Assembly (NCBI GenBank): GCA_951828385.1
Contig: OX639973.1
Location: 2,241,561 to 2,305,560 of the forward strand
Direction of reading: 5' to 3'
Length of the DNA stretch: 64,000 nucleotides
From: an uncultured Poribacteria bacterium
GTDB lineage: Bacteria > Poribacteria > WGA-4E > WGA-3G
A model generated the notes under the pieces. The model was given only the letters and a program-made list of their open reading frames with translations. It had not been told where the DNA came from and ran no database searches. Shown piece after piece: positions 20,473 to 60,603 of this stretch. Each line of letters opens with the position of its first letter. The first letter of the stretch is position 1. The translations under genes and the position numbers were made by a program.

Positions 20473-20739
20473 GATTTTTACCCTCAATATTCGGATTCTG
20501 ATTGGTAGCAGTATATCACATTTGGGTTTTTGTATATTCGTAAAATCTATACTCTTACGTAAAGATAATCTAAAACCAAATCGTACTATCATAGTTCAGA
20601 ACCATTCAATTCTCCATTTTTCGCTCGAATCTTCACCACAAGGCCCGGTAGGTGCGGTTTTGGATGCACTTTACTGAGGCACATGGATAAAAACATATCC
20701 AAAAACCAGTATTCAGGAGATCCTTTTGTGGATTGTCGC

Positions 20740-37339: not shown

Positions 37340-37406
37340 AAGAGATTCCTTTTGCGCCTCGCGGTAAACTTTCAAGTTCCCGAAAGCGGTGCTTCAGAAA
37401 GCGGAA

Positions 37407-38306: not shown

Positions 38307-38384
38307 GAAGAGTTCCTTTCGCTATTTTTGCTAACTTTACAGAAAATGTCTACATATTTCGGGATTTCAGCATATAAAGCGGGA

Positions 38385-39323
38385 TTAATCGCTCTCACTG
38401 CTTCCGGACGCATCGGACGTGATTTGGTATTTCGTTAATTCAAAAGTCTTAACCGTGGCTGAGGATTGAAACTCAGGAGAAGGTATAGTTTTCAGAAATA
38501 TATCCTCTGTTTTCTGATGAAACTTCACAATCCCGACATTCGGAGCAAGCCACAACGTCGTAACAGATTCGCCGGGTGGATCATTTGCTGAGTGCTGTTC
38601 GACAGGTGACACTTCCATTGTCGTTGCTGTGCGGTATTCAATCTTTAAACAGTCCTCAAAGGTACCCGCCTGCGTTTCAACGGTTTCTGTGCTGAGGATG
38701 TTTCCGGTTTCGGCAATGTTAAAGTCAAGTATAATTTTTGGCATCTCATCTGTCGCGGGGAAATCAGCAGGTGCCCCTATGATTTCATACTGCATCGAGA
38801 CTTTCGCTTTTATCTGCGTTGTATCCCACTTTTCGTTTGGAGTTGTGGCAGTTGGAACCAGAACAAAATGGTCCTCTGCCTTAACCTCCACATCATAATT
38901 GATATCAAAGGAGATATTAGGTGCGTCGGGTGGCGGGTTGTCCTCTATAGATTTCTTCGCCATCTCGGTGAAAGCTTCCATCTCTTTGATAAGGCGTGCC
39001 TTCATCGCTTTTTCTATCTCGTCGCCGATGAGGCATGTAATACTCTCATCATCAACACTGTACAGGGACGGCAGAAAGTGATAAGCGTAATTTGCCCAAT
39101 CTTCTATGTCAGGTTCGTAAATGAAAATGTTATACGTTTCGCCAGCAATCTCTTCGCCTTCATCAACAGTGCGTGTCAATTCATTTCCATCTTGGTCTTC
39201 ATATACCCAATAGCTGCCAAACGTCCCCGGAAAATATGTTTTCGCCGTTTCATTTCCCATCAATGTCGTACTGCAACTGAAGACGAATAGGAAAACGAAA
39301 ACGGCTCGGATTTTTTTTAACAT
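38385..39323 (-). CDS. Secreted hypothetical protein, paralog 1 (more divergent)
   Basis: Signal peptide [58 protein letters not shown]. Start at the ATG at 39323. Confidence 0.6.
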   Translation of the reverse strand: MLKKIRAVFVFLFVFSCSTTLMGNETAKTYFPGTFGSYWVYEDQDGNELTRTVDEGEEIAGETYNIFIYEPDIEDWANYAYHFLPSLYSVDDESITCLIGDEIEKAMKARLIKEMEAFTEMAKKSIEDNPPPDAPNISFDINYDVEVKAEDHFVLVPTATTPNEKWDTTQIKAKVSMQYEIIGAPADFPATDEMPKIILDFNIAETGNILSTETVETQAGTFEDCLKIEYRTATTMEVSPVEQHSANDPPGESVTTLWLAPNVGIVKFHQKTEDIFLKTIPSPEFQSSATVKTFELTKYQITSDASGSSESD

Positions 39324-39479
39324 GCGACACCCCTGTTGCATTTTGTGCTTCCTCAATTAAGTATACAGAATCCGAGCGCAAACGGCAAGGAAAATTCAAT
39401 TGTCAGCCATCAGCAAAGAATGTCTTACAAAGGCGTAGAAGTGCTTCGCTGGTTTTTTCGCCTGCGATCTTTTGAGCGT

Positions 39480-44412: not shown

Positions 44413-46041
44413 TTACTTCCGAATTAACATCTTACGCGTCGCAGTAAACTGCCCAGCTTTGAGCGTATAGAAATAGACTCCACTTGCGACTGGCTCTCCG
44501 TGAGCATTCTTACCATCCCAATAGGCAGCACGGTCTCTACTCTGATAGACACCTGCAGGCATTTCGCCTAACGGCAAACTCCGAACTAAAGCACCGTTCG
44601 CAGTATGAATGAAGACAGCGACTTCCGCTGGTTGCGCCAACTGATAAGGTATCCAAGTCTCTGGATTGAAGGGGTTGGGGTAGTTTGCCAAGAGCACTGT
44701 TTTTGGGGGTGTCGGTCGTGCCATCCGTGTCCCAACTGCCAAAAAGCGTTCTAAGATCGCGATCGTCTGTGGATCCGCACCGACATCCTGTGCCTCTTGG
44801 ATCCACTGCTGGACATCTTCTGCAGTGAAGGAGAAATCGTGTAGATGCTGTGCAAGAATAGGAGCCGCTTGGGAATCTACTGGTGCTTGGGCATCCACTG
44901 CCTTAGCAACAACAATGAGGTCTTCAATATTAACGACCCCATCTTTGTTGACATCCGCGCGTGGGTTTGCGCCATCTACGACAGTTTTTCCGTAGTTCTC
45001 TCCCACCTCAATAATGTCAAGATATGTGACACTACCGTCCCCTGTTATATCAACCGCTGCGAGTGGCTCCCACAAGCGGATTGTGTCGTCATCACTGCCA
45101 CTCACAAGAAGTGACCCATCAGAGTTCCAAGCAATTGTATTAACACTAGCGGTATGCCCTTTCAGAGTGGCTTTGTGTGCGCCAGTGGTGGAGTCCCATA
45201 AGCGGATGGTATCATCGCTACTGCCACTGGCAAGGATTGCCTCGGTTGGATGGAATGCCAACGTATGGACGTTACCGGTATGCCCTTCCAAGACGTGCAG
45301 CGGGGAATCCGTGTCCGTTGGGTCCCAAATACGGATGGTGTCATCGTTGCTTGCACTCGCGAGCAGCGTTCCATCAGGACTCCACGCAACCGATCTAACA
45401 GTATGCGTATGTCCGCGAAGTGTAGCAATGTTGGCACCGTTGTCTGGGTTCCACAAACGGACGGTACGGTCTCTACTTGCACTGGCGAGCAGCGTTCCAT
45501 CAGGACTCCACGCAACCGACTCGACATCATTCCGATGCCCCCGCAGTGTCCGAACGGGTCGACTTTTCCATGCGTCCCATGTTAAATCCCAGATACGGAT
45601 TGTGTCGTCATTGCTCCCGCTGGCAAGGATGGAGCTCCCCGGTTTAAAGGACAGCGTATTGACAGTGTTTGTATGTCCTGTGAGGTAACCTCTTATGTCT
45701 CCGTCATCTGTGTAAGACATCCCAATATAAGGGCGGAAAAAGAGTCCGCCGGCATAAACGACAAAACGCGAGTCATGCGATGAGATCGCAATATCAGAGA
45801 TTAAGAAGAGATCCACTTCGGTATGCCAAGGTTGTGCACCCGTGTCAAGATCCCAAAAGCGAAGGTCGCTATCGCCTCCCACACTGATAAGTGTGCTATC
45901 GTCTTTGAATGCCACTGCAGAGACATGAATTTTATGCCCGCTGAGCGTCCGAGTATGGAAGTACTCTTCGGCAGCGGCAAAAGGTAAAGTAACTGTGAAA
46001 ATGGACAGTAGCGTTAAAATCAAAAGGCTTATTTTTTTCAT
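44413..46041 (-). CDS. Secreted WD40 beta-propeller protein with a dockerin-like repeat and a T9SS-type (Por_Secre_tail/FlgD-Ig-like) C-terminal domain
   Basis: Signal peptide, about 7 WD40 repeats (LRGHTHTVRSVAWSPDGTLLASASNDDTIRIWD etc.), dockerin-like DVNKDGVVNIEDLIVVAKAV, C-terminal NYPNPFNPETWIPYQL...GVYFYTLKAG. Confidence 0.8.
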   Translation of the reverse strand: MKKISLLILTLLSIFTVTLPFAAAEEYFHTRTLSGHKIHVSAVAFKDDSTLISVGGDSDLRFWDLDTGAQPWHTEVDLFLISDIAISSHDSRFVVYAGGLFFRPYIGMSYTDDGDIRGYLTGHTNTVNTLSFKPGSSILASGSNDDTIRIWDLTWDAWKSRPVRTLRGHRNDVESVAWSPDGTLLASASRDRTVRLWNPDNGANIATLRGHTHTVRSVAWSPDGTLLASASNDDTIRIWDPTDTDSPLHVLEGHTGNVHTLAFHPTEAILASGSSDDTIRLWDSTTGAHKATLKGHTASVNTIAWNSDGSLLVSGSDDDTIRLWEPLAAVDITGDGSVTYLDIIEVGENYGKTVVDGANPRADVNKDGVVNIEDLIVVAKAVDAQAPVDSQAAPILAQHLHDFSFTAEDVQQWIQEAQDVGADPQTIAILERFLAVGTRMARPTPPKTVLLANYPNPFNPETWIPYQLAQPAEVAVFIHTANGALVRSLPLGEMPAGVYQSRDRAAYWDGKNAHGEPVASGVYFYTLKAGQFTATRKMLIRK

Positions 46042-46120
46042 CTGAATGCATCCTTTCCCGAAAACACTTTCGGGTGTAGATAATTTATGTTGCCCTAAAT
46101 TGCTCAAACTTTCAGTCGTT

Positions 46121-46179
46121 GTTTAATGATACAATTTGAAGGTCAAAAAGGTGCATAATGGGAAAAAAAATTGAATGAG
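46121..46179 (-). promoter_or_regulatory. Conserved ~55-bp upstream element, copy A (between the ECF-fusion 1 stop and the WD40 gene start)
   Basis: gtttaatgatacaatttgaaggtcaaaaaggtgcataatgggaaaaaaaattgaatgag. Matches copy B 49280-49338 at about 50 of 59 positions. On the coding (minus) strand it carries TGCACC-18-TATCAT. Confidence 0.55.
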
Positions 46180-46220: not shown

Positions 46221-49200
46221 TCAATCGTTTTTCTTCTCAAGCGCGGCATAAAACATCCCGCTCCGTTCGGTAACAATATAAAGCCTGTTACGCTTGACAG
46301 CAACAGAAATGACGCGGCTTGGTACGTTTGGCGAGATCTGTTCCCATCTGCCCCGAGTATCCAATTGATAGGCACCCGTATCGCCAGCACCATAAACGGT
46401 TATATCATCTACGGCAACTCGGGCTATGACGGTGTGTGTACCACCTTTATCGGTGATTGCGCGCCAATTTTCACCGTCTGCCGATGTTAAGACCCCCGCG
46501 TCTGTGGCGACATAAACCGTTGAACCCGCAAAAACAATATCGTTGAAATGTTCAAATCGAAGTGGCAGTGTTGCGGTCAGGTCTTTCCATGTGTTCCCGC
46601 TATCAAACGATCGGAACAGATGTCCATCCCGTTTGCCAACGTAGACGGTTTCACCTGAAACAGCCAGAACGAAATGATCGGGCCCCTCATGGTTAGTAGG
46701 TGCGTCAATGTCTACCAGCCCAGTGTCGAACCATTCAGGTTCGCCGCGTCTCCACCGCAGGAGCCGCCCCTGATATTCCACATAGAACGTATCACCGCTG
46801 ACTGCAAACGCGCTGTGAGATGCTATGGACTCGCGGGTTGTGTCTATCGATTTATCGGCTTTCTCAGGATCGTTAGGGGCAGCGTCGGGTATATTTCTTT
46901 CCGACATCTCTTGTGATGCAGTTTTTGGAGGCTCAATAGAAAGATTTTCACCCAAAACAGGGGCTTCTGGCATAAGCACCAGCACACCGCCATTCTTAGA
47001 AAGATGGAAGATGCGCTGCTCGGTACCTTCTATGTCTACGGAAAGTGCGGTGCCGATGCAGTAGAGTTTATCGTCAGAAATTGCCAGCTGCGAAGAACGG
47101 AGTAGAAGACCGACAGCCAATACCGATCCTAATTCTGGTGTTAATTGATCAGGGCTGAATCGCAGGTCTCTCCATGACATCCCACCGTCGGTGGATTTCG
47201 CGATATTTGTACCGGTATAGGCGTAGAGTGCGTTTTTGAATGCGACTAAGTTAGATATCTGGGTTCCGACCATGCCTGTCATAAACGGATGCCACGATTC
47301 GCCAGCATCGGTTGAACGGATAAGTCCAAAAGGACTGGCTTTGAACAGGATATTTTCGTTCATGCCAATAGCGGGGAATACACTCAGCATAAACGAATTC
47401 ATCATTGAAAGCGGATCCAATTTTTTGTATCCGTGGTTTGTCCATGTTTCGCCGCCGTCAGTCGATCGGCATTGGAAGCCGGTGTATCCCAATGCCCAAA
47501 GCGTTTTTCCAGCAGTAAGGACCTTAATGCCCGGGGATAGCATCGTCAAGACTGGCTCGCTTGTAGGTGTGATTTCAGTCCACGAATCGCCGAAATCGGT
47601 TGACCGGAAAATTTCCCACATAGACTGCCCGGCAGACACCTCTTCGCGTATTTCATCCTCTTTAAAGGCTCCCAAGTCGGGACCTGTCCCGACATAGAGG
47701 TTGCTTTCAGAAACCGCTAAGGAGTGGATAGCCTTAGTGGTCGTTAGCGGCAATTTTTCCCACATATCCATTGCCGAATTATGCCCTGGATTGATACGGT
47801 AGAGTCCCTGATTCGTTCCGATAAACATTGTGTTTTCAAGAGTAGCCAAAGCAAAGATTTTTCTATCCGTCACTTCACCACCGAGGGGTGTCCACTGCTG
47901 TCCCCTATCTTCGGATCGGAAAACACCTTTATCTCTCAGCAGGAGGTATAAGGCTTCATCCGTTACGGCCAATGCGACAGCAATACCTTCGGGGCGGGTG
48001 CCAATCGGCTCCCACATCTCGCCGCTATCGGTTGAGATAAGTACTTTATCATCAGAAATAAGATAAAGGGTTCCGTTTTGCTCCGCCATCGGTATCATGG
48101 GGGGTGCCTCCGTAGGTGTCTCCAAAGTTGTTGTAGGGCTGAGGAACGTCCATGCTCGTGTGTCTGGCGTTAATCTATAGACACCGAGACGCGAAGCGGC
48201 GTAGATATCGCCATTTGAACTTACCAGTAAGCCGCCTACGGGGCCGCTCGCTGGTACGCTCGCGGGTCTCCACTGCTGTGGTGTTGTCAGTGGTTCCTTT
48301 TCTATCTGCGCGACAGCAGGGACAACAGGCTCTGAAACTTGCGGCCCGGCACCGCTGCCCCGACCCGTGGTATCAGAACGTCCGGCTTGGTTCCGTAGGT
48401 CCGGTTCCGCCTGCGTATCAATAACAATGGGTGTGTCAATAATTTCAACAGTGGTTTCCGATTGGGCATTCAAGTTGTAAGGTCTCTGAAAGCGACTCAG
48501 GTATTGGGACCCGACACCGATCATCAGCATTATAAGAATGGTAGCGGTGCCAAAAGCGATCCAGGGTAGCAACGGTTTTCCAACCGAAGGTGGTGCTGGT
48601 TTGATGTCGGCAACTTGCTGCATAATACGCTCAATGAAATTGGCAGGCATCTGGACGTTTCCAAGCGTTTCGCTAATCAGGTGCTCTTCGGCTTGTAAAC
48701 GCTCCCGTGCCCGGCGAAGCCGACTTTTAATGGTGTTCACCGATACCCCTAAGAAATTGCCAATCTCCTTCGCCGTCATTTCACCGAGGTAGTAGAGCGT
48801 TACCACCGTCCGTTCACTCTCTGGCAATGTTTCCAGAAGCTCTTTGACGATTTCGTGGCGATGTTCCATCGCTTCCGCCTCCCGTTGCTCCGATACATAA
48901 CGTCTATAAGAAAATGCCTCTACGTCCGCTACAGATGTGTCATCCAGGGATTGCATCGCGGGTTTGTTGCTTTGATGCCACCTCTTGCAAAGATTACTCG
49001 CAATCACATAAAGCCATCCAGCAAACTGGCTGGGATTCCTCAGCCTTGCAAGGTTTTTGTATGCTTGGAGGAAGGCATCTTGGGCAATCTCTTCAGCGAT
49101 GTGAAAATCGCCAATCTTCCGCCACGCCAGCGCGTGAACGCTTTTTTGGTACTTTTGGACCAAAGCACTAAATGCCGCTTCATCACCCGACAAAATTCTG

Positions 49201-49229
49201 TGAATCAGTTGAACATCGTTTTCCACCAT
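46221..49229 (-). CDS. Membrane-tethered ECF sigma factor fused, via one TM helix, to a large extracytoplasmic BNR-repeat beta-propeller domain (paralog 1)
   Basis: N-terminal ~190 aa has sigma70 regions 2 and 4 (HIAEEIAQDAFLQAYKNL...; LGEMTAKEIGNFLGVSVNTIKSRLRRARERL). TM helix PLLPWIAFGTATILIMLMIGV. At least 8 Sx(D/S)xGxxW BNR motifs in the remaining ~800 aa. Start taken at MVENDVQ (49229) by homology with paralog 2. Confidence 0.8.
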   Translation of the reverse strand: MVENDVQLIHRILSGDEAAFSALVQKYQKSVHALAWRKIGDFHIAEEIAQDAFLQAYKNLARLRNPSQFAGWLYVIASNLCKRWHQSNKPAMQSLDDTSVADVEAFSYRRYVSEQREAEAMEHRHEIVKELLETLPESERTVVTLYYLGEMTAKEIGNFLGVSVNTIKSRLRRARERLQAEEHLISETLGNVQMPANFIERIMQQVADIKPAPPSVGKPLLPWIAFGTATILIMLMIGVGSQYLSRFQRPYNLNAQSETTVEIIDTPIVIDTQAEPDLRNQAGRSDTTGRGSGAGPQVSEPVVPAVAQIEKEPLTTPQQWRPASVPASGPVGGLLVSSNGDIYAASRLGVYRLTPDTRAWTFLSPTTTLETPTEAPPMIPMAEQNGTLYLISDDKVLISTDSGEMWEPIGTRPEGIAVALAVTDEALYLLLRDKGVFRSEDRGQQWTPLGGEVTDRKIFALATLENTMFIGTNQGLYRINPGHNSAMDMWEKLPLTTTKAIHSLAVSESNLYVGTGPDLGAFKEDEIREEVSAGQSMWEIFRSTDFGDSWTEITPTSEPVLTMLSPGIKVLTAGKTLWALGYTGFQCRSTDGGETWTNHGYKKLDPLSMMNSFMLSVFPAIGMNENILFKASPFGLIRSTDAGESWHPFMTGMVGTQISNLVAFKNALYAYTGTNIAKSTDGGMSWRDLRFSPDQLTPELGSVLAVGLLLRSSQLAISDDKLYCIGTALSVDIEGTEQRIFHLSKNGGVLVLMPEAPVLGENLSIEPPKTASQEMSERNIPDAAPNDPEKADKSIDTTRESIASHSAFAVSGDTFYVEYQGRLLRWRRGEPEWFDTGLVDIDAPTNHEGPDHFVLAVSGETVYVGKRDGHLFRSFDSGNTWKDLTATLPLRFEHFNDIVFAGSTVYVATDAGVLTSADGENWRAITDKGGTHTVIARVAVDDITVYGAGDTGAYQLDTRGRWEQISPNVPSRVISVAVKRNRLYIVTERSGMFYAALEKKND

Positions 49230-49279
49230 CAGCATTCTCCATGTCTCACGCATAAACGTGATTGTGTTTACATTCAAAT

Positions 49280-49338
49280 TGTTAATGATACAATTTTAAG
49301 GCGGAAAGGGTGCATGATTTGAAAAAAAATTGATACCC
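49280..49338 (-). promoter_or_regulatory. Conserved ~55-bp upstream element, copy B (about 55-110 nt upstream of the ECF-fusion 1 start)
   Basis: tgttaatgatacaattttaaggcggaaagggtgcatgatttgaaaaaaaattgataccc. See copies A and C. Confidence 0.55.
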
Positions 49339-49380
49339 ATAGGGTTTGGATTATAGTAAATTCCAAAAATAACACACTTT

Positions 49381-49575
49381 CAACACCGCAAAACCGCACC
49401 TACCGGACCTGGGAACTGAGACGGGATTCAAGAGGGTTTTGAAGTCCTCAAGGTTTCCGCGTAGTATCCGGTTCGGTTAGGAATGCAGGTCGCATTTGGG
49501 CGTGTACGCCGCGATGCACGTCGCATCTGGGCGTGTACGCCGCAAAAACCGAACCTACCGGGCCTGGGTCTGAAA
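49381..49575. repeat. Complex intergenic repeat region. Direct copies of CAAAACCGCACCTACCGGRCCTGGG flank a 2x direct repeat GTCGCATYTGGGCGTGTACGCCGC.
   Basis: 49389-49413 and 49545-49570 carry the flanking motif. The inner repeats are at about 49485 and about 49517. A further inverted copy of the flanking motif lies at 20643-20665. Confidence 0.6.
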
Positions 49576-49684
49576 CGGTTAAGGTAGGTCGTACGGGAAT
49601 GGATATGTTAAAAGTGCGCGCTAAATGTAGGAACAAAAAAGTCCTACTTTTTCAAGTTCAACTTTAAGATTTTGTGTGTCAAGT

Positions 49685-51300: not shown

Positions 51301-53184
51301 CTAAAACGCATTTGCGACCATCACAAGGTCCAAAATGTTCACAACACCATCAAAGTTCAAATCAAATTTCAAATCGGAATCTGTTGAACTACCAAAAGCG
51401 TTCGCAACGATCACAAGGTCCAAAATGTTCACAACACCATCAAAGTTCAAATCTTCACGAGGCGTATTCACCATTTGTTCTAATTCTTCCCAAAACTCAA
51501 CATTTGAAGAGGTGCGATGCAGTATGGAAATCGCTTGTTGTATTTCCAGATGATGCTCAAAATAATACCGGATTGTCGGAAGCACCGGTACCTGTTTATA
51601 CGTCTTAATATGTGCATTCAATATTTCCAGTTCTTGTGCTTTATATCTGTCCCCCAAATAGGCAAAAGTACCGCTATAAGCAAGGGACCACTGCGAAAAT
51701 AAGAAATCCGTAATCGGGTGCGGATCTCCGTAATCCAAATTGTCCGCGGTCCCATAAAAAGCGACATACGGAGCTGTCACCGCGTGAATATATTCGCCAG
51801 AAAAAACAATATCTGGCATCGCTTCAATAAGTTCTTCATGTAAAAGCATGTTCCCTTGAATAGGTGTCAATCCATCAATTGTAGCGTGATTTCTGATAAG
51901 CCCGTTAGCGTCAAGATGGATGGCATCAATGTTATATGTCTCTTGCACGTTTTTCAATAATTGCACGAAATATTCTCTATAACTTGAAGCTGCAGGATTT
52001 ATATAGGCGGGGCCTCCCAGTTCTAATTCCCATCCCTGTATGTTTCCATCGCTATCTCGATAGAAATAGGGTTCCCACTCAGCGTAACGCGGGTGGTCTT
52101 GAGCAACAAACGGAAAACCTGCATAGACCATTACCCTAAACCCGCGAGCCTTTGCCTCAGATACAAACGCCCCGAAGTGTTCCTGTCTCCAACCGCCGCG
52201 ACAGTAAATTAACACATTTTGCGGGTTGATCTGTTGTGGTAAAAAATCTAACATTCTAATGTAGTTACGAGTCAGTGAACAGTACATAACAACGAGTTGA
52301 ATATCTTTAACCCACGCCGGCTTATGAGCGAGACGCGATGCATTTCGCTCCATCATCCCTTGACGATACCTTTCCGCAGGCACCTGCCAATCACCCCTAT
52401 ATGTATTAAATCTCCAAATTGCGGAGGTAATATGTTGACGATTTTCAAAAGGAAGAAAATTGTGCGTGTTAAAAGCAATAGCGAAGAGATTTGGCTTTTT
52501 TCTCTCTGGCCACTGACCGAGTGCTTTAAATTGATCTGTTTCATCCTCACTCATCACAAAACATCCGCCCAATGTTCCTTGCACGACGGCAAGAGGGGCT
52601 TCCCATAGACCCGGATACGTCCAATACAAATCCATCGTGTGTTGTCCATTCATTATGTTTCCGCTGCGCCCTGGCACAATCGGAGATACCTGATCATAAT
52701 CTAAATTTCCGATTCCCCATCCGATAGTGGAAATTCCTGTTTGATCAGAAAAACCTTCCTGTCTAATTATTAAATCTCCAGTGAGCACCTCAATAATCAC
52801 CCACATAATAAGTGTGCTCTGATGCCACCGAGCCGTCAGTTTCGCCGCTAAGGGTGAAATCTTTTCAACTTCCAAGGCATCAGCACCACCTATTTCCCAC
52901 TCAGGTTCCAAGTAATCTTCGCCGTCTATTTCTGACTCATGGAACCGGGGCCCACGCATCCCTGAAAGTCTTGCATCTGGTCTTCCTGAAAGTGTATACG
53001 TTTCTTGAGTGAGTTTGTTATGCACATGTATGACGTTACCATTTTTAAACCGCACCTGATAGCGATCCGTCTCAGCGAAAACTTCACCATCTTCACTGAT
53101 CGTCAAAGTGTTTGACAACGCAGCGGGTACTAAAACAAACTGCAATATCAGCATATAAACACATTTTGTCCAAACATTTTTCAT
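51301..53184 (-). CDS. Secreted putative glycoside-hydrolase-like (TIM-barrel-type, family unassigned) protein with two C-terminal dockerin repeats
   Basis: Signal peptide MKNVWTKCVYMLILQFVLVPAALS. Catalytic-looking central region. C-terminal DLNFDGVVNILDLVIVANAF x2 (dockerin type-I-like). Confidence 0.65.
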   Translation of the reverse strand: MKNVWTKCVYMLILQFVLVPAALSNTLTISEDGEVFAETDRYQVRFKNGNVIHVHNKLTQETYTLSGRPDARLSGMRGPRFHESEIDGEDYLEPEWEIGGADALEVEKISPLAAKLTARWHQSTLIMWVIIEVLTGDLIIRQEGFSDQTGISTIGWGIGNLDYDQVSPIVPGRSGNIMNGQHTMDLYWTYPGLWEAPLAVVQGTLGGCFVMSEDETDQFKALGQWPERKKPNLFAIAFNTHNFLPFENRQHITSAIWRFNTYRGDWQVPAERYRQGMMERNASRLAHKPAWVKDIQLVVMYCSLTRNYIRMLDFLPQQINPQNVLIYCRGGWRQEHFGAFVSEAKARGFRVMVYAGFPFVAQDHPRYAEWEPYFYRDSDGNIQGWELELGGPAYINPAASSYREYFVQLLKNVQETYNIDAIHLDANGLIRNHATIDGLTPIQGNMLLHEELIEAMPDIVFSGEYIHAVTAPYVAFYGTADNLDYGDPHPITDFLFSQWSLAYSGTFAYLGDRYKAQELEILNAHIKTYKQVPVLPTIRYYFEHHLEIQQAISILHRTSSNVEFWEELEQMVNTPREDLNFDGVVNILDLVIVANAFGSSTDSDLKFDLNFDGVVNILDLVMVANAF

Positions 53185-53218
53185 AAATGCATCTCTTTCT
53201 TGTGTTATTTCTCTTTCT

Positions 53219-55248
53219 CTATTCAAACGCATTCGCTACAATCACCAAGTCCTGTATATTGACAACGCCATCACCATTTATATCCGGTGCCGTTTCCCCA
53301 AACGCATTTGCGACGATGACCAAATCCTGGATATTCACGACACCATCACCATTAACATCCGCAGTGGGAGGCGTTTCCGACTTCAAATAGATTTCGCCAT
53401 CCAAATCTGCCAACGTATGCTGGCGTTGATTCTCTACACCGCTTGCCCAGCCGGAGACCTCCTGCGGAAGTTCTATCTCCTGTTCCTTACCAGAGCGATT
53501 ATACACCGCCCAACCATTGGTGAATTCCCGGATAAACAACCCCTCTCGGTTCTCATAAAGCTGCGCTTTCGTTTCATTGCCACCCACCGGACGACCGAGG
53601 TCGGCGTTCCAGAAATCGTACCAGTAAAACTCATCATAATGGAACGTATAAACCGATGCATTGGAATGCGTGAGTGCCATTGTCGTGAAAAACCTGTTGC
53701 GTTGCTTTGCTTCGGGACCGTCGATCGGTTTGAAAGGTGACAACTCACCTTCTAAAAGATTTAATGTTGGTTTCCTCAGCTTCGTTCATTCCACAAAAGC
53801 GCATCTTCTATGTCACGGATCCCAGACAAGGTATAGCCCTCAGGTTCACCCGGGTGAAAGTCATAAAGATCACGTCCTGTTTCCATGTAGATACCGTTGA
53901 CATAGGGTGCCCAACGGCGCTGCAGTTTACGGCGGTTGTTGTTAACGAGTATAAAAAAGTCATCGGGGACAACTTCGCGAATGCGTCGGAGGATTGTGTC
54001 CATCGCAATAGATTCTTCTTCTGCGGTATAGATTCCCTGTAGCCTCTTTTTTCCTTCGCCCCAATGGTCAAAAAAGATACCATCATAGAGTCCACACTCG
54101 CTAATCGCTTTTGCCTGTTGCACAATTTGTTCTATGACAGCAGGTTTCGTGAAGTCAATAAGATGATCTATTAGTTCTTCCATGGCATGCCTGCGCCAAA
54201 CTGATGTTAGACGGTTTCCTTCTTTATCGCGTAGCCAACCGTCCCAATCTTCGCCATAAAAATCGGGGTGCCCGCTCTCAAAATACAGCCCTACAAGCAA
54301 AATCATATTAGGATTTCGGCGAAGGACTTCGGTGTGTGTTTCTATCATTTTATCCATCTGTCCTGTCCGTAAGGTTGCGTTTATACCCTCAGGAGACAGC
54401 CATATTGTTCTCACATCATTTCCGAGTGGGCCAAAAGGGTGCACTCCAAAAATAAAGTCAAACACCGTGAAAATTTCTATAGTGTGTTGATCGTGCTCCG
54501 CAAGCGTGTGGGATTTTACCCAATTAGAAGGAAAGTTTCTGTTTTGAATGCGTTCTGCCAAAGGGAGTTTGTACGAAAAATCGTCAAATAAAGATAAACA
54601 CCATCTCTCAAATGAGTTTTTTATTGCTCCTGCGAAATGCTTGATCTGGGAAAAATCCTCAATAGGGTTGTCTATTATTTCCAAAACTTTGAGTTTGGTT
54701 AGACCGGTTATTGCGGATAGGTCTGAAACCTGATTCTCGCGCAATAGCAATACTTCTAAATTTATCAGTCCCGCCAGGGGTGTTAGGTCTGAAATCTGAT
54801 TCTCGCTCAATTGCAATTCTTTTAAATTTATCAGTCCAGTGAGGGGTGTTAGGTCTGAAATCTGGGTGTCATAAAATTCGAGCGTGTGTAGTTTGACCAG
54901 TCCAGCGAGGGGCGTTAGGTCTGAAATGTTACATCGATTGATACTTAGAAACTTCAAATTAACGGCGTGTTGGAGACCTTCAAGGTTCTCAATTTCATCA
55001 CGTTCGCTTATAAGCGTGTGTAATCGTTGCATGTCCGCGATTGTTAGGCTTTCCACGTCCAACGCTTCTGATACAATTCTCCGTAGGTGTGGATCCGGCA
55101 TCCAGTCTTGGACATCTTCTGCATGGACGGAAGCATTATAGACAAGTATGCCCACAATCGACGCGAGGAACAACTGAAACCAAAATGATTTACGATATAT
55201 TTCTTTCATTGTCATAAGATAATCTATAATCTCCTTTTCAAAACGCAT
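53219..55248 (-). pseudogene. Disrupted paralog of the LRR-hydrolase-dockerin gene (two ORF fragments, 53776-55248 and 53219-53743, separated by a frameshift)
   Basis: Fragment 1 ends ...ALLWNERS*. The -1 frame then continues as KLRKPTLNLLEGELSPFKPIDG..., colinear with ...TLLWSEKNFREPQINALEGWGLESEPLDSP... of the intact paralog 55238-57268. A single nucleotide near 53787-53790 restores the frame. Confidence 0.65.
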
Positions 55249-57229
55249 TCGCTACAATCACTAAATCCTGTATATTCACAACGCCATCACCATTCAGATC
55301 AGGTGCCGCTTCCCCAAACGCATTCGCCACAATAACTAAATCCAGTACATTCACCGTGCCATCACCATTGACATCCGCAGTAGGAGGCGTTTCCGACTTC
55401 AAATAGATTTCGCCATCCAAATCTGCCAACGTATGCCGGCGTTGATGCTCCACACCGCTCGACCAGCCAGAGACCGTTTCCGCAAATTCAATCTGTTGTT
55501 CGGAGCCGGACCGATTATACACTGCCCAGCCGTTAGTAAACTCCCGGATAAACAACCCCTCGCGATCCTCATAAAACTGCCCTTTAGTTTCATCACCACC
55601 CACCGGCCGACCGAGGGGTGCCTCGTAGAAGCGGTACCAGTAATGTTGATGTTGGTGGTCATGGGATGTTCCGATGGCGTGTTCTTCTGAATGTCCTGCA
55701 TAGAGTTCATAAGCGTGCGTGTGTACGGGACCGTTAATCCCTGTTACATACTGGACGTAACCGTCGGAATGCGTCAAATTCAGCGTTGTGAAAACACGCA
55801 TCCACTGCCGGTTTTTAGGACTGTCAAGCGGTTCGCTCTCAAGTCCCCATCCCTCAAGGGCATTTATTTGTGGTTCTCGGAAGTTCTTCTCTGACCAGAG
55901 TAACGTGTTTTCAATTTCGCGCAGTCCTGCGTATGTGTAACCACTTTTGTAATCCCGTACGGTTTCCATAAATGTTCCATTCACATAGGAAGCCCATCTT
56001 GGAATTTTACCTCGATTCGTATTTACCATTATCAGAAAGTTATCACCCACTGCCTTGCGAATTCCCTTGAGAATTCTGTCTCGTGCAGTGTGTTCTTCCT
56101 CTAAAGTCTTGGAAGCTTCGAGTCTTGGCTGTTCATTCCAGTGATCGAGAAATATACCGTCATATAACCCGCATTTTGAAACTTCAATTGCCTGTTGGAC
56201 GAACATATCTTGGATTTCAGGATGTGTATAATCAATGAGATATACACCGTTATTCCCGTCCTCCACCCTCTTACCTGATGTGTCTCGCAACCAGTACTCC
56301 CAATCTTCAGGATACTCATTTGGATGTCCATAGTAGTAACGGATGACAGCAAGAAATATCATATTGGGGTTTTGAGAAAGCAGCGCGTTTCTTGTTGACT
56401 TTGCGCGTTCTATATCTCCAATTAGTTTCCAACCGTTGGACGTAGATTCCCATTGAGTACCAAAGTAATCCGGGTAAGAAAAATATAGATGGTGGTATGT
56501 GAGTAGTTCGCTCCATGTTCCTGGCAAGTTGATAATGTTATGCCATGCTGCAAATACCCGCGGTGTGTTTATGTTCTTCAACCTAACTTCGACAGAATCT
56601 CGAGGTAAAGCACATATATTGTGGGATGTGAGATTCAATGCAATCAATTCTGTAACATCTGCGCTGTTTCCATAAGTCTGCACATTTTGAAGTCTTGGGA
56701 GTTTCAAAATCGGTGTAAAATCTTCTATCTGATTTTCTTGCAACTTCAATTCTTCCAGGTTTATTAACCCTGCGAGCGGGGCAATATCCGAGATGTGATT
56801 CTTAGACAACTTTAAGACCCGTAAGTTCTCAAGCCCCACAAGCGGTGTCAAATCCGACACTTCACTTTTAACAATAGCCAAGAATTCTAAGTTCTCAAGC
56901 CCCGCAAGTGGTGCTAAATCTGAGACTTCACTTCTGTCGATAACCAAGACTCTAAGATTCACGGCATACTCAAGTCCTCTTAAACTCCTAATCTCGTGTT
57001 CTATTTCTATTAAGATAAGATTATGTAATCCTGTCATGTCTCCAGGATGTATAGGTATCTCATCAGGGATGCCGAGTTCTTCACGGACAGCCTGCCGAAG
57101 GTTTGGATCGGGCATCCAATCCTCGGCATCTTCTGCATAGGTAAAAGCATTATAGACAAGTATGCTCACAACAGACGCGAGGAGCAACTGAAACCACAAG
57201 GATTTACGATATATTTTTTTCATTGGCAT
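55238..57229 (-). CDS. Secreted protein with N-terminal leucine-rich repeats (internalin-like), a central hydrolase-like domain and two C-terminal dockerin repeats
   Basis: Signal/TM segment KSLWFQLLLASVVSILVYNAFTYA. LRRs (VSDLAPLAGLENLEFLAIVKSEVSDLTPLVGLENLRVLKLSKNHISDIAPLAGLINLEEL). Motif GLYDGIFLDHWNE. Dockerins DVNGDGTVNVLDLVIVANAF and DLNGDGVVNIQDLVIVANAF. Start codon uncertain (M14 or M16). Confidence 0.7.
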   Translation of the reverse strand: MPMKKIYRKSLWFQLLLASVVSILVYNAFTYAEDAEDWMPDPNLRQAVREELGIPDEIPIHPGDMTGLHNLILIEIEHEIRSLRGLEYAVNLRVLVIDRSEVSDLAPLAGLENLEFLAIVKSEVSDLTPLVGLENLRVLKLSKNHISDIAPLAGLINLEELKLQENQIEDFTPILKLPRLQNVQTYGNSADVTELIALNLTSHNICALPRDSVEVRLKNINTPRVFAAWHNIINLPGTWSELLTYHHLYFSYPDYFGTQWESTSNGWKLIGDIERAKSTRNALLSQNPNMIFLAVIRYYYGHPNEYPEDWEYWLRDTSGKRVEDGNNGVYLIDYTHPEIQDMFVQQAIEVSKCGLYDGIFLDHWNEQPRLEASKTLEEEHTARDRILKGIRKAVGDNFLIMVNTNRGKIPRWASYVNGTFMETVRDYKSGYTYAGLREIENTLLWSEKNFREPQINALEGWGLESEPLDSPKNRQWMRVFTTLNLTHSDGYVQYVTGINGPVHTHAYELYAGHSEEHAIGTSHDHQHQHYWYRFYEAPLGRPVGGDETKGQFYEDREGLFIREFTNGWAVYNRSGSEQQIEFAETVSGWSSGVEHQRRHTLADLDGEIYLKSETPPTADVNGDGTVNVLDLVIVANAFGEAAPDLNGDGVVNIQDLVIVANAF

Positions 57230-57379
57230 AGGTATAACTAAAGTTTGGACAATCGATTTGTGTATCAAGTAGCGTTTTCAAGGGGCTTGGTATTTTTCTG
57301 TGAGTTCTGTACCCAGGCAAACGCGGAAAAAACTATAACAGGTTAGTTACACAAGAGACACAGCCTAACAGGAGACCAT

Positions 57380-57574
57380 GCTACACAAGAGACACAAACT
57401 GGAAGTTTATGCTACACAAGAGACACAAACTGGAAGTTTATGCTACACAAGAGACACAAACTGAAAGTTTATGCTACACAAGAGACACAAACTGGAAGTT
57501 TATGCTACACAAGACACAACTGGAAGTTTATGCTACACAAGAGACACAAACTGAAAGTTTATGCTACACAAGAG
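57380..57574. repeat. Intergenic 31-bp tandem direct repeat, about 6.3 copies (gctacacaagagacacaaactggaagtttat)
   Basis: Units at 57380, 57411, 57442 (G>A variant), 57473, 57504 (28-bp short copy), 57532, and a partial seventh. Degenerate partial copies lie at 57341-57379. No unique spacers. Confidence 0.9.
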
Positions 57575-57663: not shown

Positions 57664-60603
57664 CTATTTACGAGATAAGTTGTCTCCCGCTTCCGCAAGC
57701 GGAATCTGAAACATCCCGTTGTGTCTGGTAACAATATAAAGTGTGTCGTTTTTAACAGCGAGTGAGAGGACTTTATCTGGCACGCTTGGAAAAATCTGTT
57801 CCGATTGTCTACGGTCCTCTAAACGATAGACACCGGCATCACCAGCCCCATAAATTGTGGTACCATCAACAGCAAATCTGTCTATAACGATACGCTCGCC
57901 CGCGGTATCGGTCAGGACACGCCAATATGCGCCGGTTTGTGAAGCTAAAATACCTCTGTCCGTTGCGACGTAAGCCGTTGAATCGACAAAAACGATCTCC
58001 TTGAAATGGGTAAAACGTAGGGGCAGGCTGGGGGTAATGTCGCGCCAACTGTCGCCGCCATCAAGCGACTGAAAGAGCCTACCGTCTCGCTTACCGACGT
58101 AGACGGTTTCCGCTGAGACCGCCAATTTGAACCCATTTTTCGAGCCGTCATCAGCCCGTTTCCCGGTATCTATTAATCCGGTATTTTTCCATTCAGGATC
58201 ACTCGGTTTCCAATTAAAGAGTTTCCGCTTGTATTCCACGTAGAAAGTATCACCACTGATTGCAAACGCACCGGCTCTCTCATAGTTTTCACGAAAGGAC
58301 AAATCCCTCATCAATTTACGGTCCTTTTCAGGATCACCAGAAAAGGACATTCCCTGTGCTACCGCAATCTCCTTTAGCACCGCAGGAGACAGATTTCTCT
58401 TACCAAAATCGGGTACGCCTTGAACAGGGATAAACGTATTATCACCAGATAAATGGAAGATACGGAGGTTGTCTCGCCCAGACTCAATAGCATAAAGAAC
58501 GTCGTCAACAATCACAAATTTTGAATCAGTATCGAAGTCGGTGTTAGGAGATTCTCTTTTTGAGGGTTCAGATGCTTGTTCGGCGTAATCAACTGGAACA
58601 GGTGTCCAAGATTCGCCGTCATCAGCAGATTGAACCATATTGCCGTTAGCATGTACATAGAGGCTATTATTGAATACCACCAGATCTCGTGCTCCGGTGC
58701 CGACCATGCCGTCCATAAAATGATGCCACGATTCACCCGCGTCGGTTGTGCGATAGAGACCGGAGTTTCCGGTCTTGTAGAAGGTATTTTTATCGAATGC
58801 TAAATAGGCATAGGTATTTGAGACAGTGCCAAGATTTGTCCAAGTTATCCCGTCATCTTTTGAACAAAATAGCCTGAGACCGCGTGCTAAAATTGTTTCG
58901 CCTCTAACAGCCATTGCCATAGCAGATGCTGCTATAAGGGGATATTTTTTGTCTGTAGGCGTTATCTCGGTCCACGACGTTCCGAGATCGTTTGATTTGA
59001 AAATTCTGCCTGCCCGTGACAGATCAAGTCGCATGTGATCCTCAACTTTGCGACCTGTTCCGACATAGAGAGTATCTTCAAAGGCCACCAAGTCGTGTAC
59101 GGCTCTGGTTGTATCTACCGGTAACTGTTCCCAAACATCGGCGTTGAGGCGGTAGAGGCCTCTGTCTGTGCCAGTGAATACCGTCTCTTTAATCGCAGCG
59201 AGTTTGTAAATTTCTCTACCCGTTAATCCCGTGTTCACGGGTGTCCAGTGTTTTCCAGCATCGGTGGATCGGAAAACGCCTCTCTTCCAAAGGGCGAGAT
59301 ACATCGTAACATTCGCGGGTGCGTTGCGTCCATCTGCTGCATCTACCACGATGAGTTCAGCAGGGTGTCCTTCTGGCCGGTGCCCTAATGTATTCCACGT
59401 CTCGCCATCATCGGTTGAAGCTAATAGTTCATTGCCAGCGATGATATAGAGGGTGCTTGCATGCTCTGCTATAGGCACTCGCGGCATTTCGTTTGGAATA
59501 TTGACGTTTACGGGTGTCCAGAGAGTTGCATCTGCTGTTAACCTGTAGATGCCTATTGACGAATTAACGTAGAGTGTTTTGTTAGATGTCTCAAAGATGT
59601 CAAACACGAATCCGCCTGGCGGTCCGCCCATCTGTGTCCACGGCGCAGTCGAAAATGTAGCGGAGAAATCCGCCGTTGTTGTGGTTACGACAGCCGCCTC
59701 AGCAGTCTGTAAGCCGGTCCCGATGTTTTTGGTGGCGGTCGTCGTGCGTCCGACCTGATTTCGGACAGCTGGTTTGGAAAGCAGATGGAGCATGATAGGT
59801 GCGTCAACGATTTCAACCGTCGGTTCAGATTGTGCTTCAAAACTGTATGGCTGCTGGAAGCGCGCGAGATACTGATGATGCGTACCGAGCATCAAAACTA
59901 TCAAAAGCACAGCCGCGCCAAAAGCCGCCCACGGTAGCAACGGTTTCGCGACCTGCGGCGGTGTCAGTTTCAGATCGGCGACGTGCCGCATGATGTGCTC
60001 TGTTAGGTGAGTGGGTAATTGGAAATTCCCAAGCATCTCACGAATTAAGGATTCTTCGTTCCGCGCCTGTAAACGCTTCCGCGCCCGTTGAAGCCGACTC
60101 TTGATTGTGTTCGCGGATACGCCTAAGAAGTTGCCAATTTCTTTGGCAGTCATCTCGCCGAGATAGTGGAGCGTTACGACGGTACGTTCACTTTCGGGTA
60201 GTTTTTTCAGGAGTTCCTTAACGATTTCGTAGCGGCGTTCCGCGGCTTCCGTTTCTCGTTGCTCTAATACATAATGTTTATAAGAAGATTTTTCTACTTC
60301 TGTGCGAGATATTTTTTCCAGTGATAGCATTGGCGGTTTTTTATTTTTGAACCACCGAATGCACATCCGATTCGTAATTACATATAACCACCCTGCAAAT
60401 TGGTTGGGGTTTTGGAGTGTCGTGAGTTTTTTGTGGACTTGGAGGAAGGTATCTTGTGTAATCTCTTCAGCGATATGAAAATCGCCAACTTTCCGCCACG
60501 CGAGTGCGTGGACACCCTTTTGGTATTTTCGGACTAAAGCAGTGAACGCCGCCTCATCACCTGCTAAGGTTCTCTGGATTAATTGAACATCATTTTCTAC
60601 CAT
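57664..60603 (-). CDS. Membrane-tethered ECF sigma factor fused to a BNR-repeat beta-propeller extracytoplasmic domain (paralog 2)
   Basis: N-terminus MVENDVQLIQRTLAGDEAAFTALVRKYQKGVHALAWRKVGDFHIAEEITQDTFLQ... is highly similar to paralog 1. TM PLLPWAAFGAAVLLIVLMLG. BNR motifs STDDGETW, STDAGKHW, SNDLGTSW, SKDDGITW, TTDAGESW, SADDGESW, SLDGGDSW. Its SD AAAAAGGAG lies inside the upstream PD40b tail. Confidence 0.8.
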   Translation of the reverse strand: MVENDVQLIQRTLAGDEAAFTALVRKYQKGVHALAWRKVGDFHIAEEITQDTFLQVHKKLTTLQNPNQFAGWLYVITNRMCIRWFKNKKPPMLSLEKISRTEVEKSSYKHYVLEQRETEAAERRYEIVKELLKKLPESERTVVTLHYLGEMTAKEIGNFLGVSANTIKSRLQRARKRLQARNEESLIREMLGNFQLPTHLTEHIMRHVADLKLTPPQVAKPLLPWAAFGAAVLLIVLMLGTHHQYLARFQQPYSFEAQSEPTVEIVDAPIMLHLLSKPAVRNQVGRTTTATKNIGTGLQTAEAAVVTTTTADFSATFSTAPWTQMGGPPGGFVFDIFETSNKTLYVNSSIGIYRLTADATLWTPVNVNIPNEMPRVPIAEHASTLYIIAGNELLASTDDGETWNTLGHRPEGHPAELIVVDAADGRNAPANVTMYLALWKRGVFRSTDAGKHWTPVNTGLTGREIYKLAAIKETVFTGTDRGLYRLNADVWEQLPVDTTRAVHDLVAFEDTLYVGTGRKVEDHMRLDLSRAGRIFKSNDLGTSWTEITPTDKKYPLIAASAMAMAVRGETILARGLRLFCSKDDGITWTNLGTVSNTYAYLAFDKNTFYKTGNSGLYRTTDAGESWHHFMDGMVGTGARDLVVFNNSLYVHANGNMVQSADDGESWTPVPVDYAEQASEPSKRESPNTDFDTDSKFVIVDDVLYAIESGRDNLRIFHLSGDNTFIPVQGVPDFGKRNLSPAVLKEIAVAQGMSFSGDPEKDRKLMRDLSFRENYERAGAFAISGDTFYVEYKRKLFNWKPSDPEWKNTGLIDTGKRADDGSKNGFKLAVSAETVYVGKRDGRLFQSLDGGDSWRDITPSLPLRFTHFKEIVFVDSTAYVATDRGILASQTGAYWRVLTDTAGERIVIDRFAVDGTTIYGAGDAGVYRLEDRRQSEQIFPSVPDKVLSLAVKNDTLYIVTRHNGMFQIPLAEAGDNLSRK

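Follow-up and report, generated by a model that had tools for sequence, protein, structure and literature searches.

The gene for a secreted WD40-dockerin-CTD protein (CTD, C-terminal domain) lies on the reverse strand of the 64,000-nt stretch of DNA that was analysed (the window), and encodes a product of 542 residues, with its stop codon at 44413-44415 (Table 1). The open reading frame around it spans 44413..46107 on the same strand. The ATG at 46041 and its AAGGA ribosome-binding site are kept in ten orthologous loci, whereas the TTG-extended part 5′ of this codon is not conserved, indicating that ATG 46041 is the true start. More than 60 full-length orthologues were found (70-94% identity), and syntenic orthologues (82-93% identity), with conserved neighbours, are present in nine species-level Poribacteria genomes. 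In marine sponges, Poribacteria rank with the dominant symbionts, and a part in host contact is commonly ascribed to the eukaryote-like repeat proteins that they encode; we know of no established export route by which these proteins reach the cell surface. An initial reading of this DNA, made from the sequence alone, assigned a signal peptide, WD40 repeats, a dockerin and a FlgD-Ig/T9SS-type CTD to the protein, and these calls were borne out by profile scores, the sequence itself and an AF2 model. Its suggestion that the T9SS-like CTD hinted at an FCB-group or related host needs correcting, as the lineage is the sponge-associated Candidatus Poribacteria, which NCBI taxonomy places among the candidate phyla, outside the FCB group.

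Table 1. Features of the WD40-dockerin-CTD locus, in window coordinates
Feature	Residues	Coordinates	Strand	Basis
Whole gene, secreted WD40-dockerin-CTD protein		44413..46041	-	ORF; RBS/ATG conservation; >60 full-length orthologues
Sec-type signal peptide (predicted)	1-24	45970..46041	-	sequence; low-pLDDT N-terminal helix in AF2; orthologue conservation
Seven-bladed WD40 beta-propeller	27-326	45064..45963	-	PF00400; AF2; 2ymu_A match
Type I dockerin, two Ca-binding loops and two helices	331-386	44884..45051	-	
Ala/Pro-rich spacer and conserved helical segment	387-449	44695..44883	-	cassette model helices; conservation; no Pfam match
C-terminal beta-sandwich, putative sorting domain (T9SS type A / FlgD-Ig type)	450-542	44416..44694	-	
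Two-block, promoter-like motif (TGCACC-N16-TGTATCA), 86 nt 5′ of the WD40 start codon		46127..46155	-	rarity; conservation
ECF sigma factor (regions 2 and 4)-one TM helix-large BNR/sortilin-like propeller fusion; likely start ATG 49229		46221..49277	-	Pfam
Second copy of the two-block motif, preceding the ECF sigma fusion gene		49286..49314	-	same motif search
Exported glycoside-hydrolase-like protein, terminal dockerin, no CTD		51301..53232	-	Dockerin_1 36.4 bits; weak GHL10/DUF6259 matches
Paralogue of the 55238..57268 gene (LRR, GHL15-like, terminal dockerin), frameshifted near 53779		53219..55248	-	tblastn; Dockerin_1 44.5 bits
Exported LRR and GHL15-like protein, terminal dockerin, no CTD		55238..57268	-	Pfam LRR_4, GHL15, Dockerin_1 39.7 bits
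Second ECF sigma-TM-BNR propeller fusion, heading a run of three terminal-dockerin genes		57664..60603	-	Pfam

The predicted signal peptide, MKKISLLILTLLSIFTVTLPFAAA followed by EE, was recognised by inspection of the sequence (MKK, then a hydrophobic core of 16 residues, and AAA before EE); the segment is conserved in orthologues and forms an N-terminal helix of low pLDDT in the full-length AF2 model (overall pLDDT 76). The 28 strands modelled downstream of it make up seven four-stranded blades, mostly with pLDDT above 90 (above 90 for blades 3-7), and blade 2 is degenerate; the WD40 profile (PF00400) matched six repeats with an E-value of 3e-70. The best solved relatives are the Nostoc WD40 protein 2ymu_A (E 3.5e-138) and PkwA (5yzv, E 1.8e-70), both bacterial, so that "eukaryote-like", as the propeller had been called, is a loose label. 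Recent transfer of the propeller from a eukaryote was rejected on these bacterial relatives, together with the GC content, which matches that of the surroundings.

Dockerin_1 (PF00404) matched the protein at 28.1 bits (cut-off 22.9), over positions 3-56 of the 57 in the profile. The match takes in both calcium loops, DITGDGSVTYLD and DVNKDGVVNIED, showing that the dockerin is complete; what had been described as a dockerin-like repeat is indeed a dockerin, and not a single repeat. Both loops are 12 residues long, carry oxygen ligands at positions 1, 3, 5, 9, and 12, and are each followed by a helix, and in 39 homologues the ligand positions and the two helices are conserved. Solved dockerins were matched by the profile of the wider family with an E-value of 4.6e-11, and weak EF-hand Pfam matches overlap the loops. 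The orthologue group has a dockerin subtype with a DxTGxG first loop and Y/L at the recognition positions, in place of the commoner DVNGDGVVNI type. The helical segment that follows contains an invariant Trp413 and ends in a PxxT(V/A)LL lead-in to the CTD. Its helices were predicted with high confidence in a model of the dockerin-helices-CTD tail (pLDDT 88.4), and a Pfam search returned zero matches for the segment, which fits no known family.

The CTD scored above threshold with FlgD_ig (PF13860; 37.4 bits versus 27) and narrowly, by 1.4 bits, with the TIGR04183 Por_Secre_tail model (24.4 versus 23), and below it with PF18962 (16.8 versus 27). The first two were the models proposed for checking the assignment, and the CTD matches them, the T9SS model by a small margin; the Ig-like beta-sandwich is also superposable on solved T9SS CTD folds. 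Across orthologues, no other segment of the protein is as well conserved as the CTD (77-87% identity, versus 50-81% for the propeller), a pattern expected for a signal that is read by one shared machinery. A hook-cap function of the FlgD type was rejected, because the alignment is confined to the Ig-like part and the FlgD models scored far below their cut-offs (NF005176, 25.9 versus 230; NF009276, 25.7 versus 383). No T9SS Pfam families were detected in the sampled neighbourhoods of poribacterial genes that encode this tail. A FadL/Toluene_X-like outer-membrane protein, encoded beside CTD genes on another Poribacteria contig, was considered as a PorV candidate but is not detectably PorV (PorV_fam, 17.8 versus 90 bits; no PDB PorV chain matched).

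The dockerin, helical segment, and CTD together form a lineage-wide cassette, found behind varied N-terminal passenger domains in thousands of Poribacteria-type proteins. Word indexing yielded 7,410 homologues, and 5,933 representatives of 50%-identity clusters matched at E<=1e-30; the cassette is always C-terminal, with the match ending at the last residue. Among 68 representatives that were scanned for domains, FlgD_ig was present in 67 and Dockerin_1 in 65, while 31 carried WD40 and 28 carried Cohesin. The cohesin usually resides on the same polypeptide, directly upstream of the dockerin (median gap 11.5 residues), and cohesin-bearing cassette proteins hold one to three copies. In a labelled Poribacteria MAG, the Pfam cohesin model scored 40.7 bits (versus 24.1) within a WD40-cohesin-dockerin-CTD protein, and a single 6.42-Mb chromosome-scale Poribacteria-type contig encodes the syntenic orthologue as well as two cohesin-cassette proteins, so that the lineage has candidate cohesin partners, though not in the form of classical scaffoldins. 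The sequence-only reading had seen no cohesin scaffold; an absence of cohesins holds only within the 64-kb window, where a lineage-specific cohesin HMM with filters off found none at E<=0.01, and in the lineage cohesins are abundant. A multi-cohesin scaffoldin was likewise absent from the window, and the cohesin proteins of the family carry their one to three cohesins together with a dockerin and a CTD of their own. Thus, although the window contains dockerin-bearing, glycoside-hydrolase-like proteins, it does not present a scaffoldin-based cellulosome. Of the two explanations offered earlier for the dockerins, a non-cellulosomal use is the better one, as the cassette proteins form no conventional multi-cohesin cellulosome; their use merely as calcium-binding modules is less likely, given the abundance of cohesins in the lineage, including the genome syntenic with the window.

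Profile scores confirmed all four of the dockerin genes originally counted in the window, namely the WD40 gene and three others whose products end in a dockerin (Table 1). A frameshift interrupts the gene at 53219..55248, which counts as one, since tblastn revealed two collinear segments in different frames. Two further genes encode ECF sigma factor fusions that are 48% identical to each other. The one next to the WD40 gene was matched in Pfam by Sigma70_r2/r4, Sigma70_ECF, BNR, Sortilin-Vps10, and DUF6242, and lies 5′ of the WD40 gene in every orthologous locus, with other genes inserted between the two in three cases (L002, L005, and L007); the paralogue loci (L010-L014) have no such fusion. 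The motif TGCACC-N16-TGTATCA occurs twice in the window (0.09 occurrences expected), once before each of the two adjacent genes, is conserved in position in orthologous loci, and recurs as a pair in seven other orthologous loci. The canonical ECF promoter, GGAAC...CGT, was not found upstream of the genes, and a scan for the sigma-70 consensus gave background levels only. The shared motif at both genes, together with their synteny, suggests that the WD40 gene is probably transcribed from a promoter of the same kind as that of the adjacent membrane-tethered ECF sigma gene, and that its expression is probably driven by this neighbour.

Taken together, these features lead us to favour, with moderate confidence, the view that the product is displayed at the cell surface and combines Sec export, CTD sorting, calcium-dependent cohesin docking, and ECF-linked expression. 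The protein would pass the inner membrane through Sec, and its CTD would then be read by a shared machinery, perhaps a T9SS of divergent type, perhaps some unknown analogue of it, for outer-membrane crossing and tethering. At the surface, the dockerin may bind, in a calcium-dependent manner, to cohesin modules on neighbouring proteins. Since about 40% of the sister cassette proteins have a cohesin upstream of their own dockerin, surface proteins would be joined to each other instead of being suspended from one central scaffoldin, and the three CTD-less, dockerin-terminated glycosidase-like proteins of the window could plug into the same cohesins. The propeller would be the exposed passenger, serving as a protein-binding platform; sponge host or matrix proteins are the ligands usually proposed for such repeat proteins. 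Expression would come from the neighbouring membrane-tethered ECF sigma factor. A more far-reaching version is tentative and, in our estimate, rather doubtful: thousands of repeat-protein passengers would be sorted by a CTD pathway lacking a recognisable T9SS, their cis cohesin-dockerin pairs would form a self-assembling, scaffoldin-free coat that captures dockerin-terminated enzymes, and the WD40 protein would be a terminal unit of this lattice, under the control of an ECF sensor.

Instead of a secretion signal, the CTD might be a structural Ig-like domain, a spacer or adhesin module, in a protein that stays in the periplasm or is released in some other way because Poribacteria lack a T9SS. 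Kamke et al. (2014) did not find Por structural genes in poribacterial single-cell genomes (PMC3909097), and the scores given above are compatible with such a role, PF18962 being under threshold, TIGR04183 passing narrowly, and the best Pfam match, FlgD_ig, being a generic Ig-like family. Against this, the domain sits strictly at the C-terminus of thousands of proteins with unrelated passengers and is conserved above the propeller, and the absence reported in 2014 was judged on single-cell assemblies, before the present T9SS models existed; we regard a purely structural CTD as unlikely.

Two further readings concern the dockerin and the sigma factor neighbour. A dockerin that has no cohesin partner, and acts solely as a calcium-stabilised, EF-hand-like linker between propeller and anchor, would agree with the lack of cohesins in the window, the departure of the DxTGxG subtype from the commoner cassette type, and the weak EF-hand matches over the loops. 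This is quite unlikely in view of the cohesins encoded in the same protein family and in the genome syntenic with the window, and of the conservation of ligand positions and helices among homologues. Moreover, three other exported proteins of the window have a terminal dockerin as their sole anchor, which is meaningful only where there is a receptor for it. The strict conservation of the gene pair and its common promoter-like motif in orthologous loci could also mean that the WD40 protein is not displayed at all, and is a periplasmic signalling partner of the ECF sigma/BNR fusion, either presenting a ligand or acting as an anti-sigma accessory; there are known cases of sigma/anti-sigma fusions whose activation depends on a partner protein or on proteolysis (PMC8999054). 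Yet the dockerin-CTD tail is found on thousands of proteins without such a neighbour, the paralogue loci lack the fusion, the pair is interrupted in three loci, and simple membership of a regulon explains the common motif equally well, which makes a signalling role very improbable. The surface-display reading recasts the WD40 domain as no more than the variable passenger on a fixed cassette for export and docking, with candidate cohesin partners in the same genomes, and turns the annotation "eukaryote-like protein" into a set of questions, on the machinery that reads the CTD, the polymerisation of cis pairs, the ligand of the propeller, and control by the ECF factor.

Eukaryote-like WD40 proteins with a Por C-terminal domain (TIGR04183) were described in Poribacteria by Kamke et al. 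(2014, PLoS One; PMC3909097), so that the combination of WD40 and Por CTD in a phylum in which Por genes were not found has been in print since 2014, and the present protein adds one member to that class. The proteins of that study, from the same phylum, share the WD40 and FlgD_ig/TIGR04183 domains, and often a signal peptide. Table S8 of the paper lists Dockerin_1 and Cohesin among the domains on such WD40 genes, which the main text leaves undiscussed; the paper describes neither the dockerin, helices, and CTD as a fixed cassette, nor the cis cohesin, nor the neighbourhood with the ECF sigma gene. Within the literature library searched, no text connects Poribacteria with dockerin or cohesin, and a search for Poribacteria with T9SS found nothing else of relevance.

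Outside the phylum, several parts of the protein, and the neighbouring sigma gene, have counterparts. The highly repetitive bacterial propellers of Nostoc punctiforme (2ymu) and Thermomonospora PkwA (5yzv) share the GH...WD repeat consensus of the poribacterial propeller; unlike the latter, they are not known to be exported and have neither dockerin nor CTD. T9SS type A cargo proteins of Bacteroidota, exemplified by the CTDs of PorU, PorZ, mirolase, and NucA/RemA bound to SprA-PorV, likewise combine a signal peptide with a C-terminal Ig-like sandwich of about 90 residues, and the poribacterial CTD resembles them in scoring, if narrowly, above the TIGR04183 cut-off. It differs in being a longer, FlgD-Ig-like variant with an AAYWDGxN insertion that falls under the PF18962 cut-off, and in belonging to a phylum other than Bacteroidota, for which T9SS machinery is unreported. 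The neighbouring sigma gene resembles those of ECF sigma factors that carry a transmembrane anti-sigma/sensor part on the same chain, such as IutY (ECF243) and SCO4117 (ECF52) (PMC8999054), in having sigma regions 2 and 4, one TM helix, and a large extracytoplasmic domain; its sensor, in contrast, is a BNR/sortilin-like propeller of about 700 residues. With cellulosomal and non-cellulosomal cohesin-dockerin systems, among them a cellulosome-like complex with CTD anchoring that has been proposed for Ca. Stygibacter (Cloacimonadota; PMC8542988), the poribacterial family shares the type I dockerin with duplicated calcium loops and exported enzymes with a terminal dockerin, and, with systems of the Ca. 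Stygibacter type, cohesin proteins anchored through a T9SS-type CTD. No large multi-cohesin scaffoldin was seen in the poribacterial family, which places one to three cohesins, a dockerin, and the anchor on one polypeptide, and its passengers are mostly repeat proteins (WD40, LRR) and not cellulases; the WD40 protein of the window differs in turn from the cohesin-bearing members of its own family, in that it carries the dockerin without a cohesin.

The minus-strand open reading frame (ORF) of the WD40 gene spans 46107 to 44413. In an upstream alignment, ten orthologous loci share the ribosome-binding site and the ATG at 46041; the TTG-extended part upstream of this ATG is not conserved and carries an insertion in one locus. 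The product is therefore a 542-aa protein, as the gene limits first proposed had implied. Its N-terminus, MKKISLLILTLLSIFTVTLPFAAA/EEYF, reads as a standard Sec signal, which upholds the proposed signal peptide. Six PF00400 matches were returned by Pfam (E 3e-70), and the AlphaFold2 model (39 homologues as input; pLDDT 76) contains 28 strands arranged in seven blades (residues 27-326), in line with the roughly seven repeats expected. Pfam counts six rather than seven because the GH/WD signature is lost in blade 2. The closest solved relatives of the propeller are bacterial (Nostoc 2ymu, E 3.5e-138, and PkwA), and the description "eukaryote-like" is acceptable as a label but not as an origin.

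In the same model, the propeller is followed by two dockerin helices, two linker helices and a C-terminal sandwich. Within these last 218 residues, Dockerin_1 scored 28.1 bits (Pfam cut-off 22.9) across both duplicated Ca loops; the sequence-only reading had recognized the dockerin but took it for a single repeat, whereas it is complete, with both DITGDGSVTYLD and DVNKDGVVNIED present. Its assignment of the C-terminal domain (CTD) to the T9SS/FlgD-Ig type agrees with FlgD_ig (37.4 bits, Pfam cut-off 27) and, narrowly, with TIGR04183 (24.4, NCBIfam cut-off 23), though not with Por_Secre_tail PF18962, which fell below its Pfam cut-off (16.8 bits vs 27). The FlgD equivalogs of NCBIfam scored far under their thresholds and were rejected.

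A search with this tail as query gave at least 7,410 matches, many of them 50-89% identical across the entire query and joined to differing N-terminal domains (WD40, cohesin, LDL-receptor class B or LRR); the few that are named are called [quoted passage not shown]. A profile of 56 tails, run against 1.84 billion cluster representatives, matched 5,933 proteins of 214-2,295 aa at E<=1e-30, with the match reaching the last residue of the protein. Among 68 representatives scanned with Pfam, FlgD_ig was found in 67, Dockerin_1 in 65, WD40 in 31 and Cohesin in 28. An HMM survey of these dockerin-helices-CTD cassette proteins placed one to three cohesins on each cohesin-bearing member, with a median of 11.5 residues between the cohesin end and the first dockerin loop. 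In cassette alignments, the Ca ligands are invariant, as is a Trp in the helical segment, a segment without a Pfam match; the sorting domain has an almost fixed start (LLxNYPNPFNPETWIPYQL) and a fixed end (ATRKMLIRK). Modeled separately (pLDDT 88.4), the cassette consists of the dockerin, three helices, compared with two linker helices in the full-length model, and a seven- to eight-stranded sandwich. Its sequence profile retrieved solved dockerins first (2y3n_B, E 4.6e-11) and FlgD Ig domains next.

When a single genome per species was scanned for the WD40 protein, 15 loci came up. Nine are full-length orthologues (82-93% identity) from MAGs that bear the label Candidatus Poribacteria, a further five are poribacterial paralogues, and the last is a CTD-only match in a Prolixibacteraceae genome. 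Around all nine orthologues, at least 10 neighbouring genes keep the same order at ~90% identity. More than 60 full-length orthologues (70-94% identity) are present in the protein database, named "hypothetical protein [Candidatus Poribacteria bacterium]" at NCBI and "WD40 repeat protein" at JGI, together with a second tier of relatives near 57% identity and 14-bladed versions. The suggestion of an FCB-group or related lineage was not borne out, Poribacteria being listed among unplaced candidate phyla in NCBI taxonomy, outside the FCB group. In the chromosome-level MAG OZ244821.1 (locus L004, 10001-11626), the orthologue is interrupted, the longest open frame covering the last 451 codons only; the break is probably a long-read frameshift.

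The count of four dockerin proteins in the window was correct. The three besides the WD40 protein all have signal-peptide-like N-termini and lack the sorting domain; one is a single gene that a frameshift near 53779 divides into two ORFs, which reflects either pseudogenization or a fault of the assembly. No cohesin was found in the 64-kb window with an HMM built from relatives and run with filters off. Elsewhere in the lineage, the MAG JAJEEK01 (labelled Poribacteria) encodes a 14-WD40 protein with a cohesin between propeller and dockerin (40.7 vs 24.1 bits, Pfam). The 6.42-Mb ENA contig ERZ26693581:ctg358797 carries an orthologue, P0176, in a window-like gene neighbourhood and, ~1.8 Mb away, a beta-helix protein with two cohesins and the cassette, adjoined by a second cohesin-cassette protein. 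These cohesins, together with the 28 of 68 in the census, indicate that candidate cohesin partners exist in the lineage. Judged from their sequences, they are borne by proteins with their own dockerin and anchor rather than by a classical scaffoldin. The earlier statement that no cohesin scaffold is visible thus stands for the window and for classical scaffoldins, but not for cohesins in the lineage at large.

The upstream neighbour of the WD40 gene codes for an ECF sigma factor to which a BNR/sortilin-like propeller of ~700 aa is joined by a single transmembrane helix. In all orthologous loci this gene lies ahead of the WD40 gene, and in six of nine species loci the two are adjacent; in L002, L005 and L007, 2-4 kb of inserted genes lie between them. 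Two copies of the motif TGCACC-N16-TGTATCA, and no more, occur in the window (0.09 expected by chance). An exact copy precedes the sigma gene in nine orthologous loci (L002-L009, L021), and eight of these have a second copy downstream of the sigma gene, usually directly before the WD40 gene, L007 having the first copy only; the motif was not found in the twelve unrelated loci. Such a pair is what an autoregulated ECF sigma factor with a target promoter would be expected to show, as far as sequence can suggest. Sigma/anti-sigma fusions freed by proteolysis are on record (PMC8999054). A second, paralogous sigma fusion (48% identity) is present in the window, and genes for exported dockerin proteins follow each of the two. 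Additional sigma-fusion copies were seen on the related contig L021.

Coordinates of features in the window
Feature	Position	Strand	Remark
WD40 gene	44413-46041	-	
Sigma fusion gene	46221-49277	-	
TGCACC-N16-TGTATCA copy	46127-46155	-	86 nt upstream of WD40 start
TGCACC-N16-TGTATCA copy	49286-49314	-	just upstream of sigma gene
Repeated GC-rich segments	around 49330-49600		upstream of first sigma gene
31-bp direct repeat	49483-49543		2 copies, 93% matches; in 400 nt upstream of first sigma gene
GH-like protein	51301-53232	-	dockerin at extreme C-terminus; motif scan and Pfam
LRR + GHL15-like protein	53219-55248	-	dockerin at extreme C-terminus; paralogue of 55238-57268; split gene; motif scan and Pfam
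LRR + GHL15-like protein	55238-57268	-	dockerin at extreme C-terminus; motif scan and Pfam
31-bp tandem repeat	57378-57574		6.5 copies, 94% matches; intergenic, between second sigma fusion and LRR-GHL15-dockerin gene
Second sigma fusion	57664-60603	-	at head of the three-gene run with terminal dockerins
Three tandem paralogous genes	36419-39356	-	weak DUF3108-like matches
ORF without Pfam match	18580-20592	-	
ORF without Pfam match	24121-25620	+	
ORF without Pfam match	30563-31510	-	
ORF without Pfam match	61398-62771	-	apparent internal duplication
ORF, Type ISP restriction-modification C-terminal specificity domain	62881-63987	-	E 8e-104; continues past window end

The remainder of the window is ordinary chromosome of even GC content, with recN, NAD kinase, uvrA, a UvrD-type helicase, an amidase, an S41 protease, an aldehyde dehydrogenase and a haem biosynthesis cluster. 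Pfam, at E<=0.1, left four long ORFs, of 315-670 aa, without a match. The direct repeat and the GC-rich segments upstream of the first sigma gene may be REP-like elements. Identity of the DUF3108-like paralogues between Poribacteria genomes is widely spread (41-96%); a poribacterial Dockerin_1 + DUF3108 protein is present in Table S8 of Kamke et al. 2014 (PMC3909097).

Set beside the observed domain architecture, folds, cassette distribution, taxon, synteny and motif pair, surface display offers one reading of the whole, which we favor slightly. The WD40 protein would be exported by Sec, passed through and tethered at the outer membrane in a CTD-dependent manner, and docked through its dockerin, in a Ca-dependent way, to cohesins on sister surface proteins. 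The same cohesins might capture the CTD-less dockerin enzymes, the propeller would serve as an exposed binding platform, and the adjacent ECF sigma factor would control the gene.

In the main rival, which we regard as improbable, the phylum has no T9SS and the CTD does not act as an export signal. Kamke et al. 2014 did not find Por-system structural genes, and the pathway "remains to be revealed" (PMC3909097); a FadL-like outer-membrane protein encoded next to CTD genes does not resemble PorV. The sorting domain is, on the other hand, the most conserved segment, with 87% and 77% identity in two orthologue tiers compared with 81% and 50-60% for the propeller, a pattern to be expected of a signal read by shared machinery. 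Foldseek matched the cassette model to FlgD, PorU, PorZ and substrate CTDs bound to the SprA-PorV translocon; since numerous generic Ig-like domains score almost as high, the predicted fold speaks for, but does not prove, a place in the T9SS CTD class. The FadL-like protein mentioned above is a FadL/Toluene_X-like barrel with a weak BamG-family match (47 vs 250 bits), whose gene directly follows that of a FlgD_ig/TIGR04183 CTD protein on the 6.54-Mb ENA contig of locus L018 (6892-9242); it might be a candidate CTD-pathway component.

According to Kamke et al. 2014, the Por secretion C-terminal sorting domain (TIGR04183) is encoded in numerous eukaryote-like proteins of Poribacteria, "especially WD40 repeats", and their Table S8 lists WD40 + FlgD_ig + TIGR04183 genes, some with Cohesin, as well as Dockerin_1 genes (PMC3909097). 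The WD40 protein is of an already described kind and adds a further member to a very large family of Poribacteria. In the literature searched, neither discussion of poribacterial dockerins or cohesins in paper text nor of a poribacterial T9SS was found. The additions to that literature are modest: the constant dockerin-helices-CTD cassette, the cohesin often found in cis, and the conserved pair of putative promoters at the sigma-factor and WD40 genes. For a Cloacimonadota genus, a "cellulosome-like" cohesin-dockerin complex with CTD anchoring has been put forward (PMC8542988).
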